A DNA stretch of 64,000 nt from Patescibacteria group bacterium (lineage in GTDB: Bacteria; Patescibacteriota; Minisyncoccia; Moranbacterales; UBA2206): contig JAKLIG010000004.1 of assembly GCA_022709735.1 (NCBI GenBank), positions 240-64,239 on the forward strand, read 5' to 3'. Positions 34,287-38,276 of the stretch are shown here, one piece after another (position 1 is the stretch's first letter; each line of letters starts with the position of its first letter). Under the pieces are notes generated by a model that saw only the letters and a program-made list of their open reading frames with translations, ran no database searches and was not told where the DNA came from. The position numbers were made by a program, and so were the translations under genes.

Positions 34287-34307
34287 AAATTTAATTGAAC
34301 ATTAATT

Positions 34308-34353
34308 ATTGAATATTGATTAATAAAAAATAATTTAATAATCAATATTCAAT
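34308..34353. promoter_or_regulatory. Perfect 15-bp inverted repeat (attgaatattgatta ... taatcaatattcaat, 16-nt spacer) in the divergent atpD / small-ORF control region, abutting a minus-strand ttgact -35 box (34354..34359)
   Basis: Read directly from the sequence. Confidence 0.5.
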
Positions 34354-34365
34354 AGTCAATTTTTG

Positions 34366-34434
34366 CTTTGTTTTAGCCAAATATCCGCTGATTAGGATTT
34401 GGCATTTGACTTTTTCACAATTTTATGATATCAT
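34366..34434 (+). promoter_or_regulatory. Conserved upstream element (34366..34400, shared with 37781..37815) plus promoter for small ORF P1: -35 ttgact (34406..34411), 17-nt spacer, extended -10 TGaTATCAT (34426..34434); RBS aaaaggagagg precedes the ATG
   Basis: Identical 35-nt block ctttgttttagccaaatatccgctgattaggattt at both loci; both are followed by ttgactttt. Confidence 0.6.
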
Positions 34435-34492
34435 CCAAAGTCAACTTAACAACTCAATACAAATAAACGTCTGATGAAAAGGAGAGGCTAGA

Positions 34493-34843
34493 ATGAAAAA
34501 AAGTTATTATGTATTAACTATTATGAAGGTTCCACGTAAGGATGTTGTAGGAAGCGTAGCAAATCGTAATTTTCGGTTCGATATAATGGGAATTGATAAA
34601 TCTTCCGGAAAAATTGAACGATTTTCATTCAGTTCAGAAAGAATTGTAGCATTACAATGCAATAATTGTTCTTCCGAAGATTTCATTAGAATTTCCATTT
34701 TAAACTTCCTGCAAGACTTCGGGCTTCAAATCGTTTCCTCCGAAACGATCAAGGAAATTTGGATGGATAGGTATGAAATTTTTGTATATAAACATTTTCT
34801 CATATCTAATTCTCCTGTTTCCCTGAAAGACATTACAGAGTAG
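34493..34843 (+). CDS. Small hypothetical protein P1 (116 aa), antisense insert between atpG and atpD
   Basis: Strong promoter and SD; no recognisable domain. Confidence 0.55.
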   Translation: MKKSYYVLTIMKVPRKDVVGSVANRNFRFDIMGIDKSSGKIERFSFSSERIVALQCNNCSSEDFIRISILNFLQDFGLQIVSSETIKEIWMDRYEIFVYKHFLISNSPVSLKDITE

Positions 34844-34874
34844 ACGCTAAAAAGTTGTGCCAGCAAGTAGCTGG

Positions 34875-34917
34875 AAAAAACCACTGATTCCGAACCTTGG
34901 ATGACGTGGCTTTTTTG
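34875..34917 (+). terminator. Terminator of P1: aaaaaaccactgattccgaaccttggatgacgtggcttttttg; homologous to the P2 terminator
   Basis: Imperfect hairpin followed by a T-tract; motif ccaCTGATTcc. Confidence 0.5.
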
Positions 34918-34948
34918 TTTTCTTTTTTATAAAAGAACTCCTATTTTC

Positions 34949-35033
34949 GTCATCCTGAACGCAGTGAACCTTTTTTGAGATTCCCTGCCTGCCGGCAGGC
35001 AGGTTCGCTCTGCTCAGAATGACGATTATTATT
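34949..35033. repeat. Palindromic repeat element E2: gtcatcctgaacgcag...ctgctcagaatgac with inner gaacc/ggttc stem and the perfect CCTGCCTGCCGGCAGGCAGG core (34984..35003)
   Basis: Termini shared with E4; core shared with E1; lies between convergent P1 and atpG, so it could serve as the atpG terminator. Confidence 0.8.
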
Positions 35034-35069
35034 TTGATTTTCAATTTTCTAAAAGCTATAAGCTAAAAG

Positions 35070-36029
35070 CTAATTTTCTAACGCCGCTCTTCCTGCTGAA
35101 ATTTCCGCGATCTCCTGCGTAATCTTCATCTGCCTAATTTGATTATACGCCAGCGTGAGATCCATCGCCATTTCTTCCGACGCTTCCGTCGCATTTTTCA
35201 TTGCAATCATCTGGGCTGATTCTTTGGACGCATTGGATTCCAGAATCGCATGATAAACCTGCATTTCAATGAGACGCGGAATAATATCCTTCAAAACTTC
35301 TATCGGGCTTGGTTCTATCTTATATTCCACTATCGGTTCAGAAAGTCCGTATTCTTTGGCCAAAACATCCATCTCGGCAATTTGCTTTTCCAAATCAATT
35401 TTTGATAGTGGCAAAATTTGGCGAACTTTTGTCTGTTGATTTATCGTTGAGACATAATCCGTATAAAAAATAACAACTTTGTCATATTTTTTCGCCAGAT
35501 ATTCTTGAATGACAATTTTTCCAATCGCCCTGACATCATCAATTTTTGGCAGATATGCCAGATCATTAAACGAGGCAATAATTTCATTTCCAGCTTTTCG
35601 AATGGCAACTTCTCCTTTTTTTCCGATGGTTATAAAATCAATTGCTAAATCTTTATTAGAAATTTTGGATTCTAGTTTTTTCGTTCCGATTCGATTTATT
35701 TTTAATTTTTCTGGATTATCCAATTCTTCTTTTATCTTTCTGGCTATTTGCGAATTGAATGATCCGCAAAGTCCGCGATTAGAAGTTATCACAATTGCCA
35801 AAATTCTTTTCACCTCACGAACTTCCAAAAGCCCTTCCTGATTTTTTTCAAACGAGCGGGCTAGATTAGTCAGAATGCTCCAAGCGCTGTGAGCATACGG
35901 CCGAATTGCCAAAACAGACGCAATTGCGCGCCGCATTTTTGCCGCACTCACCATTTCCATCGCCCGCGTAATTTTCCCGGTGTTTTTGATGGACTTTATT
36001 CGCCTTCTAATTTCTTTGCCACTTGCCAT
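35070..36029 (-). CDS. atpG: F-type ATP synthase gamma subunit
   Basis: N-terminus MASGKEIRRRIKSIKNTGKITRAMEMVSAAKMRRA; C-terminus ...AEISAGRAALEN. Confidence 0.9.
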   Translation of the reverse strand: MASGKEIRRRIKSIKNTGKITRAMEMVSAAKMRRAIASVLAIRPYAHSAWSILTNLARSFEKNQEGLLEVREVKRILAIVITSNRGLCGSFNSQIARKIKEELDNPEKLKINRIGTKKLESKISNKDLAIDFITIGKKGEVAIRKAGNEIIASFNDLAYLPKIDDVRAIGKIVIQEYLAKKYDKVVIFYTDYVSTINQQTKVRQILPLSKIDLEKQIAEMDVLAKEYGLSEPIVEYKIEPSPIEVLKDIIPRLIEMQVYHAILESNASKESAQMIAMKNATEASEEMAMDLTLAYNQIRQMKITQEIAEISAGRAALEN

Positions 36030-36052
36030 AAATTAATTACCAAAAATTTTAT

Positions 36053-36154
36053 AATTTTTAATTTTGTAATTTTTAAATAAATTCTAATTTCTAATGTTTA
36101 AAAATTTAGATTTAAGTTTTATTTATAAAATTAAAAATTCAAAAATTAAAAATT
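36053..36154. repeat. 102-nt AT-rich intergenic repeat, copy 2 (between atpA stop and atpG start)
   Basis: Near-identical to 32761..32862. Confidence 0.85.
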
Positions 36155-36155
36155 C

Positions 36156-37664
36156 TTAGTTGTTATTCTCATATACTTCTTTGAATTCCTTAATAGCTTT
36201 CTCTAATTTAGCAACGACATCATCATTTAATTCTTTTTTATCAGCAATTAATTTCAAAACATCTTTCGCGCTGGAATACATATATTTCTGAAAATCTTCT
36301 TCCCATTTTTTTATTTTTTCCACTGCGGTGTCATCTAAAAATCCATTTGTGAGAGCATAAAGAATTGCCACCTGATTTTCCATTGCCATCGGTTCGTATT
36401 GACCTTGTTTCAAAACTTCAACGGTTCGTCTTCCTCTTTCAATTTGTTTCCTTGTATTTTCATCCAGGTCTGATCCGAATTGCGCAAAAGCTTCGAGTTC
36501 TCTAAATTGCGCCAAATCTAATCGAAGTTTTCCGGCTACTTTTTTCATCGCTTTTGTTTGCGCTGATGAACCAACACGAGAAACGCTGAGGCCAACATTC
36601 AGCGCCGGACGAACTCCTTTATAAAACAAATCTGATTCCAAATAAATTTGTCCGTCAGTTATGGAAATAACATTAGTTGGGATGTAGGCCGAAACATCGC
36701 CGGCTTGCGTTTCAATAATTGGAAGAGCCGTGAGTGATCCTCCGCCAAAATCTTTGTTCATTTTCGCACTTCGCTCCAAAAGTCTGGAGTGAAGATAAAA
36801 AATATCTCCCGGATAAGCTTCGCGTCCTGGTGGGCGTCTTAGAATCAAAGAAATTTGGCGATAAGCCCAAGCGTGCTTGGAAAGATCATCATAAATTACG
36901 AGAACATCTTTGCCTTTGTCCATAAAATATTCTCCGAGCGCGCAACCGGAATATGGAGCGATAAAAGAAAATGCCGCTGGATCAGATGCGCCCGCCAAAA
37001 CCACTGTCGTATATTCCATCGCACCTTTCTTTTCGAGTTCCGCGACAATTCTTGCAATTTTAGATTCTTTTTGGCCAATCGCCACATAAATGCAAATCAT
37101 GTCCTGTCCCTTTTGATTGATAATCGCATCCACCGCAATGGCAGTTTTCCCAGTTTGGCGATCGCCGATAATCAATTCTCTTTGCCCTCGACCGATTGGA
37201 ATCATTGAATCAATCGCTTTTATTCCTGTTTGCACTGGTTGATTGACCGATTCGCGAGAAATTACGCCTGAAGCAATTTTTTCAATCGGATAATTTTTTT
37301 CTGTTTTAATGTCCCCCTTGCCGTCTATTGGTTCTCCCAGCGGATTAACCACTCTTCCAATCATAGATTCTCCGACTGGAATGGAAAGAATTTTTCCGGT
37401 TGATTTTACCGTGTCTCCTTCTTTGATGTTTTCATAGTTTCCCAAAATCATGGCTCCGATTTGCCCTTCTTCCAAGTTTAGTGCCACGCCGTAAATGCCA
37501 CCAGAAAATTCAAGCATTTCCGATGCCATGCAATCCGAAAGCCCGGAAATTTTTGCTACGCCGTCTCCAATTTCAATAACCGTTCCAACTTTTTCGGTTT
37601 GCGTCTTGGCTTCAAAATTCTCAATTTGCTTTTTTAACTGGTCGATAATGTGGTTTTTGTTCAT
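36156..37664 (-). CDS. atpA: F-type ATP synthase alpha subunit
   Basis: Walker A GDRQTGKT; length 502 aa. Confidence 0.95.
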
Positions 37665-37780
37665 ATAAATTTAATTTTAAATTATAAATTTGAAATTTGA
37701 AATGAATTTTAAATGTTTTAATTCTTAATTTAGTAATTTAGCCTTGATTTAAAATTTCAAATTTAGCCTTTAAAATTTTC

Positions 37781-37849
37781 CTTTGTTTTAGCCAAATATC
37801 CGCTGATTAGGATTTAGGGGTTGACTTTTGAGGTGGTTTGTAATACACT
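37781..37849 (+). promoter_or_regulatory. Second copy of the conserved upstream element (37781..37815) plus promoter for small ORF P2: -35 ttgact (37821..37826), -10 candidate tacact (37844..37849); RBS taaggagg precedes the ATG
   Basis: Shares the 35-nt block and -35 context with 34366..34414. Confidence 0.55.
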
Positions 37850-37904
37850 TCAATGATTTAATTGAAAACAATTAACTAATAAAATTTTAATAAGGAGGTT
37901 ACTG

Positions 37905-38189
37905 ATGAGCGAATTAGTAGGAAAATTAATTGCTGTTCTTTTTTTAAAACCGGATTATGAGGGCAACTTAACAAAAGAAGCGATTCAGGGAAAAGTTGTA
38001 AAGGTGGAAAATAATTTGCTTTTCCTTACGGATGTTTTTAAATTAACAACCAACATGGGTATTAGGGCGGAAAGATGCTACGACCAAGTCATTAGCACTT
38101 GCTCATTATTATTCGTAAAGATGGAAATAATTCCAGATGATAGATTTTTTCGTTATCCTTACTTCGAAGATTTTCATTTACAAAGATAA
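37905..38189 (+). CDS. Small hypothetical protein P2 (94 aa), antisense insert between atpH and atpA
   Basis: Strong SD aaggagg 7 nt before the ATG; no recognisable domain; no clear similarity to P1. Confidence 0.55.
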   Translation: MSELVGKLIAVLFLKPDYEGNLTKEAIQGKVVKVENNLLFLTDVFKLTTNMGIRAERCYDQVISTCSLLFVKMEIIPDDRFFRYPYFEDFHLQR

Positions 38190-38214
38190 AAGCCCATTCC
38201 ATCTAAAACCGCTG

Positions 38215-38250
38215 ATTCCATATTATTTGGATGACGCGGTTTTCTTTTTC
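38215..38250 (+). terminator. Terminator of P2: aaaaccgctgattccatattatttggatgacgcggttttctttttc; homologous to the P1 terminator
   Basis: ccgc/gcgg stem followed by a T-tract; motif ccGCTGATTcc. Confidence 0.5.
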
Positions 38251-38276
38251 TCAATTTTTTAAAAGAACAAATTTTT

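Follow-up and report, generated by a model that had tools for sequence, protein, structure and literature searches.

In a metagenome-assembled genome of Candidatus Moranbacteria (candidate phyla radiation (CPR)/Patescibacteria), the genes for the F-type ATP synthase (atp), which form one of the most conserved operons in biology, are split at two junctions by small-gene cassettes on the opposite strand. The two cassettes encode unrelated proteins between related flanking sequences. In relatives, other small open reading frames (ORFs) are found at the same positions between the same conserved flanks, and one relative has the site in an empty form. We analysed a 64,000-nucleotide stretch of this genome (hereafter the window) and the corresponding loci of relatives. 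The explanation that we consider probable is that the junctions are moron-like, insulated small-gene slots of Moranbacteria, the payload of which would be exchanged between the conserved flanks by recombination. A literature search found no paper on Moranbacteria atp operons or on such loci in Patescibacteria.

From ~17.6 kb to 64 kb of the window, nearly all genes lie on the minus strand, including the atp genes, which have the usual order atpI-B-E-F-H / A-G / D-C with breaks at H-A and G-D. The atpG-atpD junction measures 783 nt and contains ORF116 (cassette 1); the atpH-atpA junction measures 738 nt and contains ORF94 (cassette 2). Both ORFs are on the plus strand, at the coordinates given by an earlier interpretation made from the letters of this DNA alone (the sequence-only reading), which we verified (Table 1). 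That interpretation had also described the two proteins as dissimilar and their flanks as homologous, and our comparisons bear out both statements: the proteins are unrelated by BLASTP (E-value 1.7), and the flanks align at 89% identity over 57 nt upstream and at 74% over 73 nt on the 3' side, above the 70% taken there as the lower limit.

The upstream similarity is centred on an identical 35-nt block ahead of a TTGACT box, as first described in the sequence-only reading, and the 57-nt alignment includes this box. A hidden Markov model (HMM) of the block matches positions 34362-34414 (E-value 5e-13) and 37777-37829 (E-value 4e-13). There is no third copy in the window at up to three mismatches, and none of 100 shuffled sequences contained a match. 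TTGACT is the putative -35 element of a promoter-like site in each cassette; promoter-like matches across the region as a whole are at background level (29 found, 25 expected). The leaders that follow show no structure when compared with shuffled sequences (fold z +0.2 to +1.1); the value of +1.1 in cassette 1 indicates an unstructured leader. Strong Shine-Dalgarno sites, AGGAGAGG in cassette 1 and AAGGAGG in cassette 2, are located 5-6 nt ahead of the respective ATG codons.

On the 3' side, the sequence-only reading had noted related terminators. The pattern CTGATTCC..TTGGATGACG indeed occurs exactly twice in the window (at 34884 and 38212; 0 expected by chance), and both copies are predicted to form an interrupted hairpin followed by a U-run (z ~ -3 compared with shuffled sequences). 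The outer stem differs between the cassettes by one compensatory change from A-U to G-C. The cassette 1 terminator has an A-run on its 5' side and may therefore act bidirectionally. A GCTGATT motif had been reported at both ends of each unit. It is exact in cassette 2, but the cassette 1 terminator reads ACTGATT, and the likeness of the cassette ends is not above chance (shuffling p ~0.04-0.08) and is not kept in relatives. We also considered the cassette ends as direct repeats or a target-site duplication, including the block as a loop-deleted terminator; this was rejected (p 0.04-0.08 in the window, 0.02 for one cross pair, absent in other cassettes). An inverted repeat formed by 'ctaatcac' and 'ctgattag' of the block was likewise rejected, as it is present in L089, L090 and L092 and missing from the window, L091 and L098 (L numbers denote loci of relatives and other assembled contigs). 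An Rfam scan of 32-41 kb with E-values up to 10 returned chance-level matches only.

The atp loci of relatives were gathered through their AtpA and AtpG homologs, with ~10-20 kb covered per relative. This sample contains 14 filled cassettes, 13 at atpG-atpD or atpH-atpA junctions (the window's two included) and one outside the atp operon. The atpG-atpD junction is filled in nine of 14 genomes (L009, L087, L089, L090, L091, L092, L093, L098 and the window; 500-740 nt in the relatives) and compact, at 30-131 nt, in L007, L008, L088, L094 and L099. The atpH-atpA junction is filled in four of 13 genomes (L009, L091, L098 and the window) and compact, at 5-30 nt, in eight relatives. At both positions, the cassette is an extra gene between genes that are adjacent in relatives. 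Each long junction has a Shine-Dalgarno-led ORF of 22-116 residues that runs against the atp genes. Antisense orientation to the neighbouring genes is common to all 14 cassettes, as are a hairpin (ΔG -10.6 to -21.9) with a T-run behind it and an ORF that fills the space from Shine-Dalgarno site to terminator; the Shine-Dalgarno site is of GGAG type in 13.

In the aligned flanks, three elements are conserved. The first, upstream, has the consensus ATTTGCTTTATTTTAGCCAAATATTCACTGATTAGGATTTAA and lies directly against TTGACT; the second is a hairpin, which varies in sequence, and the third a post-terminator motif, GGCTTTTTTATTTTCAATTTTCCAAAGAAC. Past this motif, there are palindromes resembling miniature inverted-repeat transposable elements (MITEs), which differ between cassettes. 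We define the family by the block and TTGACT upstream, the hairpin, T-run and ..TTTTCCAAAGAAC downstream, and one small Shine-Dalgarno-led ORF in antisense orientation; both window units have all of these. A search of the relatives for the block, proposed in the sequence-only reading, located it at the same two junctions: it is recognisable in ten of the 14 filled cassettes and at one empty site, the atpH-atpA junction of L099. In 1.27 Mb of fetched DNA, the HMMs of the block and the trailing motif match cassette sites only, and the block HMM found L098 atpG-atpD and L099 atpH-atpA although these were absent from its training set. Exact 20-mers of the block gave no match in GTDB genomes or in viral contigs, but the source contig itself is evidently outside these and the metagenome collections, so that absence of the block there means little. 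Four metagenome matches to block 20-mers were dismissed as chance, their flanks being without similarity.

The payload is replaced between these flanks. All-vs-all nucleotide matches among the cassettes end at the ORF borders, and the cassette proteins are mutually unrelated by BLASTP, with one exception described below. The clearest cases come from close relatives. L092 and L098 have AtpG proteins that are 93% identical, with 59% identity at four-fold degenerate sites of the gene. Their atpG-atpD cassettes are ~95% identical from the block to the ATG and ~98% identical in the terminator and trailing motif, whereas the ORFs between (94 and 50 residues) show random-level identity. In L089 and L090 (AtpG 97% identical in amino acids, 71% at four-fold sites), the block is 97% identical, but everything between the end of TTGACT and the T-run of the terminator has been replaced. 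Flanks are 93-98% identical where neutral sites are 59-71% identical. Payloads, by contrast, fall below the similarity of neutral sites when the same pairs of genomes are compared, and they are very unequal in length, which argues for replacement and not drift. Terminator and promoter modules also reassort among ORFs. The terminator CTGATTCC..GGATGACG is common to three unrelated ORFs, those of both window cassettes and of L098 atpH-atpA, and the L089 terminator recurs at 89% identity in L091 atpG-atpD, combined with a different promoter type and ORF. The proposal of conserved regulatory-type flanks around non-homologous small ORFs is supported.

The empty form of the site is found in L099, where the 204-nt atpH-atpA junction consists of the block, TTGACTTTTTT, directly ATTTTCCAAAGAAC, and then a MITE, in other words, the L090 cassette without its payload. 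On the evidence of this allele, the payload is bounded by two T-runs, one following the -35 box and one following the terminator; it also shows that block and trailing motif are part of the site itself or a scar left in it. Compact junctions such as that of L088 have neither element, and the two thus came in with the cassette. In the window, the two blocks have three bases in common that differ from the consensus of the relatives, which points to duplication or gene conversion within this genome. L091 displays the same homogenising tendency, with ~145 nt upstream of atpA and of atpD being 84% identical. A 113-nt AT-rich imperfect palindrome, 96% identical between its copies, occupies 32753-32865 (atpD-atpC) and 36045-36157 (atpA-atpG). 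The element is also present in the atpA-atpG junction of L089, and long AT-rich palindromes of differing sequence are found in most atp junctions of these genomes. They may serve in processing or stability; alternatively, they would be another instance of homogenisation around atpA and atpD.

The payloads are small proteins. The 14 cassette ORFs encode 22-116 residues; seven have membrane or signal segments (22-114 residues), one is a CxxC..CxxC zinc ribbon, and the others look soluble. Neither window ORF has a membrane segment. Pfam, PHROGs and PADLOC gave nothing meaningful for the window ORFs or those of the relatives, apart from generic zinc-ribbon hints below threshold for the L087 ORF, and in a word-indexed search of 5.8 billion proteins ORF116 and ORF94 matched only themselves. 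A full HMMER scan of 1.84 billion representatives found one true homolog of ORF116, the 111-residue protein P0124 (40% identity, BLASTP E-value 9e-19); a further match, the 1638-residue sushi-repeat protein P0123, was rejected as a repeat-summed artefact. The small membrane ORFs of L091 atpH-atpA and L098 atpG-atpD were not accepted as homologs, their match being not significant (E-value 0.1 in a database of 14 sequences). In three assemblies, the gene for P0124 is the only one on the plus strand within a run of minus-strand genes, with a nadD-like gene on one side and a gene for a 145-residue protein on the other. This locus (L095) is itself a cassette, with a diverged block, the promoter TTGACTTTTTGGTGATTTTGGAGTATAAT, near-identical to those of L091, L092 and L098, a hairpin, and TTTTTTTTCCAAAATTTTCAAAAGGAC. 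Thus, the cassette type occurs beyond the atp operon, again in antisense orientation. The structure predictions suggested in the sequence-only reading were informative for one of the two proteins. AlphaFold2 run on the single sequence of ORF116 gave a β-β-β-α-β-β fold of moderate confidence (predicted local distance difference test (pLDDT) score 75.7, predicted template modelling score 0.65), for which no convincing structural neighbour was found; the prediction for ORF94 (pLDDT 42) is not confident. Its homolog, this predicted fold and a codon usage that favours the annotated frame alone (as it also does for ORF94) mark ORF116 as a real protein family.

The explanation that we favour combines these observations as follows. 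Each unit would be a self-contained cassette in which a small ORF is preceded by a predicted sigma-70-type promoter and an unstructured leader of ~55 nt with a strong Shine-Dalgarno site, and followed by an intrinsic terminator. The slot would be bounded by two fixed sequences, the ~40-nt block abutting the -35 box and TTTTTTATTTTCAATTTTCCAAAGAAC just past the terminator. The DNA between them has been swapped repeatedly, either in its entirety from the -35 box to the T-run or as the ORF alone. After DNA uptake, homologous recombination would probably take place within the conserved flanks and adjacent atp genes. Such uptake-driven exchange is plausible given that the genome encodes DprA (DNA_processg_A and DprA_WH domains; 12538-13614, plus strand, followed by topoisomerase I and a RelA/SpoT homolog), which is a hint only that recombination of this kind is possible. 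Within a long co-directional run of essential genes, antisense placement alone would be tolerated, presumably because a one-way terminator then leaves atp transcription unblocked; most cassette hairpins have no T-run on the atp strand. The two window copies would be products of duplication or gene conversion within the genome. We infer that the cassettes are expressed and that the payloads, many of them small membrane or secreted proteins, have niche-specific accessory roles.

Among the closest known parallels is the phage moron (e.g. HK97 gene 15; PMC3594210), a single gene added between two that adjoin one another in relatives and equipped with a promoter and a factor-independent terminator of its own. 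Like morons, the Moranbacteria cassettes look like independent transcription units inside an operon, with TTGACT-17-TAnnnT promoter-like sites and, in all 14, a hairpin and T-run; their cargo is varied, accessory and often a membrane protein. The window ORFs have a GC content of 32.5%, as against 39-44% in the flanking atp genes, but the average of the whole window is 36%. Unlike morons, they belong to a core operon of the chromosome of a CPR bacterium, not to a phage or prophage: they are surrounded by atp, tRNA synthetase and other housekeeping genes, and no match was found in viral contigs or PHROGs. The cassettes further differ from morons in that unrelated cargo is associated with promoter- and terminator-side sequences of one conserved family, in that the slot has an empty allele, and in their invariably antisense orientation. 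Another parallel is found in hypervariable accessory loci between conserved core genes that are exchanged by homologous recombination, such as bacteriocin/immunity loci and defence hot spots. As in the slot, alleles without homology occupy orthologous positions between conserved flanks, the mosaic boundaries are sharp, and even very close relatives differ through turnover. However, the Moranbacteria slot is a few hundred bases long, contains one small ORF, lies inside an essential operon, and has short non-coding expression signals as its conserved flanks instead of genes.

Several observations do not sit easily with an exchangeable, insulated slot. Swapping an ORF alone between identical leaders and terminators is hard to achieve by plain homologous recombination without a pool of cassettes with the same flanks, and no such pool was observed. 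The terminator of cassette 1 has a T-run on both sides and may block read-through of the atp genes, which, for that copy, misfits the argument that the cassettes are non-polar. The block survives in the empty L099 site and so could have a role unrelated to the payload. ORF94, with neither a homolog nor a confident fold, could be a non-functional or very young ORF. Finally, the seven membrane or secreted proteins among the 14 are weak evidence of function, as T-rich DNA yields short membrane peptides by chance.

One alternative, which we regard as unlikely, is that the ORFs are incidental or newborn proto-genes and that antisense transcription and translation are themselves under selection. Examples would be an RNA duplex with read-through atp mRNA that leads to processing, or interference by convergent transcription that tunes the dosage of the alpha and beta subunits, the intervening sequence being free to vary. 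Conservation of the expression signals and not of the ORFs would be expected in this case, as would the properties of ORF94. Many of the ORFs have the T-rich, hydrophobic character that is common among random AT-rich ORFs, and the codon usage of both window ORFs, though positive in the annotated frame alone, scores lower than that of core genes (0.10-0.17 vs 0.37-0.52). However, sequence that is merely free to vary does not explain similarity below that of neutral sites with very unequal lengths, or ORFs that span the distance from Shine-Dalgarno site to terminator in every cassette. Conservation of ORF116 and P0124 at the protein level, at different loci with different flanks, the moderately confident fold of ORF116 and the occurrence of the same cassette type outside the atp operon also argue against it.

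In the sequence-only reading, the block was a shared transcription factor site between divergent promoters that co-regulates separately transcribed atpA, atpD and the small genes. We consider this improbable. The block is identical at both junctions, strongly conserved across species and kept in the payload-less L099 site, and its place is always between the promoter of the cassette and the next gene start on the opposite strand. Its strong constraint and its position directly upstream of the -35 box would suit an activator site or an UP element, so the idea of a regulatory site stands in part, but coordination of atpA and atpD is unsupported. A minus-strand TTGACT (34359-34354) adjoins the block upstream of atpD as had been described; it belongs to a candidate atpD promoter from the promoter scan, TTGACT-16-TAAATT (34359-34332), within an AT-rich palindrome (34298-34363) that has a homologous counterpart in L009. 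Nothing comparable exists upstream of atpA, and promoter-like sites in this region are close to the expected number. The reverse complement of the block has no conserved -35/-10 pair and no clear dyad symmetry; the block as an atp-strand promoter, with TTGGCT or TAAAAT as candidates, was rejected because spacing and bases differ between the window and the relatives. The block is missing from all compact atp operons (L007, L008, L088 and L094) and from four cassette-bearing atp junctions (atpG-atpD of L009, L087 and L091; atpH-atpA of L098), and it is present upstream of the nadD-like gene in L095. Its distribution is thus that of the cassette, not that of the alpha and beta subunit genes.

Equally improbable, in our view, is that the two fixed sequences are the halves of a dedicated docking site, used by an undescribed site-directed capture system of CPR bacteria (integron-like or terminator-targeting, with no linked integrase), or that the site is a permanently expressed 'nursery' for unrelated or newborn ORFs. 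Among known systems, integron cassettes resemble the Moranbacteria units in comprising one small ORF each, in the interchangeable cargo at a fixed site with filled and empty states, and in a promoter element of the site (here the block and -35 box) that stays as the cargo changes. There is, however, no attC-type site: the 3' hairpins differ in sequence and are followed by T-runs, and there are no conserved GTTRRRY/RYYYAAC cores. Moranbacteria payloads bring their own spacer, -10 box, leader, Shine-Dalgarno site and terminator, only the -35 box and block staying with the site, and the cassettes are single and not arrayed. No intI tyrosine recombinase was seen beside the atp operon in the window or in the ~5-10 kb flanks of the relatives.

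We give still less probability to the cassettes being modules for addiction or competition (encoding small hydrophobic type I toxins, bacteriocin/immunity or phage exclusion proteins) that are kept variable by frequency-dependent selection. The seven membrane or signal-peptide proteins, the hypervariability of the locus between conserved flanks with presence/absence polymorphism, and the strong, constitutive-looking signals would fit such modules. With type I toxin-antitoxin loci (ibs/sib, ldr/rdl, tisB/istR), the cassettes share short hydrophobic intergenic ORFs, long leaders, a low copy number and conserved non-coding flanks, and five of the 14 ORFs (L009 atpG-atpD, L089, L090, L091 atpH-atpA and L098 atpG-atpD) are within the size of small hydrophobic toxins (<~60 residues); those of the window exceed it. 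However, the leaders are unstructured with the Shine-Dalgarno site exposed, unlike type I toxin mRNAs, half of the ORFs appear soluble (63-116 residues), and the cargo is unrelated between copies. An antitoxin RNA was sought without success, as there was no Rfam match and no conserved opposing or overlapping antisense promoter inside the cassettes, and no partner gene or PADLOC, PHROGs or Pfam match was found. Lastly, mis-joining of repeats within the atp operon during assembly or binning has a negligible probability: the block is a repeat, and one Logan contig terminates exactly inside it, but contigs of 114-119 kb that were assembled independently (JGI, NCBI and Logan) show the same layout, and nine further species from separate studies have matching architecture. 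That contig (L002, SRR5007146_484311; independent short-read data of the same organism) has as its position 1 the first base of the TTTTAGCC... core, and such an end is expected where a repeat breaks the assembly graph.

Table 1. Coordinates of the cassettes, adjoining repeats and atp genes in the window.
Feature	Position	Strand	Remarks
ORF116, 116 residues	34493-34843	+	between atpG and atpD
ORF94, 94 residues	37905-38189	+	between atpH and atpA
Conserved upstream block, copy 1, 35 nt	34366-34400	+	exact duplicate; ends 5 nt short of -35 box
Conserved upstream block, copy 2, 35 nt	37781-37815	+	exact duplicate; Logan contig L002 breaks here
Cassette 1 promoter-like site, TTGACT-17-TATCAT with TG extension	34406-34434	+	consensus scan, 10/12 matches
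Cassette 2 promoter-like site, TTGACT-17-TACACT	37821-37849	+	consensus scan, 9/12 matches
Cassette 1 leader	34435-34492	+	fold z +1.1; Shine-Dalgarno AGGAGAGG at 34480-34487
Cassette 2 leader	37850-37904	+	Shine-Dalgarno AAGGAGG at 37892-37898
Cassette 1 intrinsic terminator (predicted)	34875-34925	+	hairpin 34875-34916, then T-run; A-run at 5' side
Cassette 2 intrinsic terminator (predicted)	38205-38250	+	hairpin 38205-38243, then T-run
Post-terminator trailing motif, copy 1, diverged form of TTTTTTATTTTCAATTTTCCAAAGAAC	34905-34939	+	trailing-motif HMM E-value 2e-4, alignment
Post-terminator trailing motif, copy 2	38235-38269	+	trailing-motif HMM E-value 3e-5
AT-rich imperfect palindrome between atpD start and cassette 1	34298-34363		inverted repeat, 30-nt arms, 87% complementary
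MITE-like palindrome, cgtcatcctgaacgcag ... ctcagaatgacg, core CCTGCCTGCCGGCAGGCAGG	34947-35025		inverted-repeat scan; separate repeat abutting cassette 1
Nested MITE-like palindromes, gtaggggtttgattcatcaaaccc ... and gtagggaatgcgtatacgcattcc ...	38277-38402		between cassette 2 and atpH stop; inverted-repeat scan
atpI	40518-40757	-	ORF list and Pfam families on identical JGI contig
atpB	39766-40518	-	ORF list and Pfam families on identical JGI contig
atpE	39451-39732	-	ORF list and Pfam families on identical JGI contig
atpF	38899-39384	-	ORF list and Pfam families on identical JGI contig
atpH	38403-38867	-	ORF list and Pfam families on identical JGI contig
atpA	36156-37664	-	between both cassettes; ORF list and Pfam
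atpG	35070-36029	-	between both cassettes; ORF list and Pfam
atpD	32874-34286	-	downstream of cassette 1 on atp strand; ORF list and Pfam
atpC	32301-32741	-	downstream of cassette 1 on atp strand; ORF list and Pfam

Some further features of these loci deserve mention. MITE-like palindromes of several families (cgtcatcctgagcgaagcgaaggatc..., gtaggggtttgattcatcaaaccc..., ctgaaccactgattagcatgtgatt... and gtcattccgaacttgtttcggaatc...) are inserted a few bases past the AAAGAAC of the trailing motif in almost every cassette, and this spot may be a preferred MITE target. They are seen in the window at 34947-35025 (with an orthologous copy in L087), at 38277-38402 and, as a partial copy of the first, at 17539-17558, and also in L009, L087, L089, L090, L091, L092 and L098. 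Another insertion is tolerated in the operon of one relative: L091 has a PD-(D/E)XK_3 (PF13366) gene on the atp strand between atpD and atpC (8078-8497). A second atpI-like gene (PF09527, ATPase_gene1), besides the copy at the operon start, is found between atpF and atpH in L089 (2694-2948) and L092 (2705-2965). The longest ORF for atpH in the window (154 residues) begins ~22 codons upstream of the MKITATQYAK start used in relatives; this extension (38802-38867) is probably not translated. Codons ~19-50 of atpD contain two short, GC-rich, in-frame palindromes (34147-34164 and 34213-34229), tccgccgatgaggcgga and cccgcctcttcggcggac on the coding strand, which encode SSADGG and SSADKT; one of the two is missing from L009. 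Both are reminiscent of the Rickettsia palindromic elements (RPEs) inserted in frame into genes, and a similar sequence, CCTGCCGATGAGGCAGG, is present at 62458-62474. Far from the atp operon, a very large minus-strand gene, the 5' part of which occupies positions 1-4150, encodes a glycine-rich repeat protein whose N-terminus resembles a signal peptide, and runs past the start of the window; 183-nt internal repeats of this gene (1978-2160 and 3250-3432) are 80% identical.

The genomes of CPR/Patescibacteria are tiny and dense, and how they gain and test accessory genes is little understood. The atp operon of Moranbacteria has a recurrent, defined slot where even near-identical genomes have exchanged one small protein for another under constant expression signals. 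One caution that follows is that the atp genes of these organisms may not be transcribed as one continuous unit. To our knowledge, almost no genetic tools exist for CPR bacteria; if the cassettes are expressed, they would provide a natural set of promoters, leaders and terminators. Their fast-turnover small proteins would then be candidates for interactions of these episymbionts with hosts, phages or competitors, and the slot would be a tractable case for studying how ORF-only replacement between identical flanks comes about.

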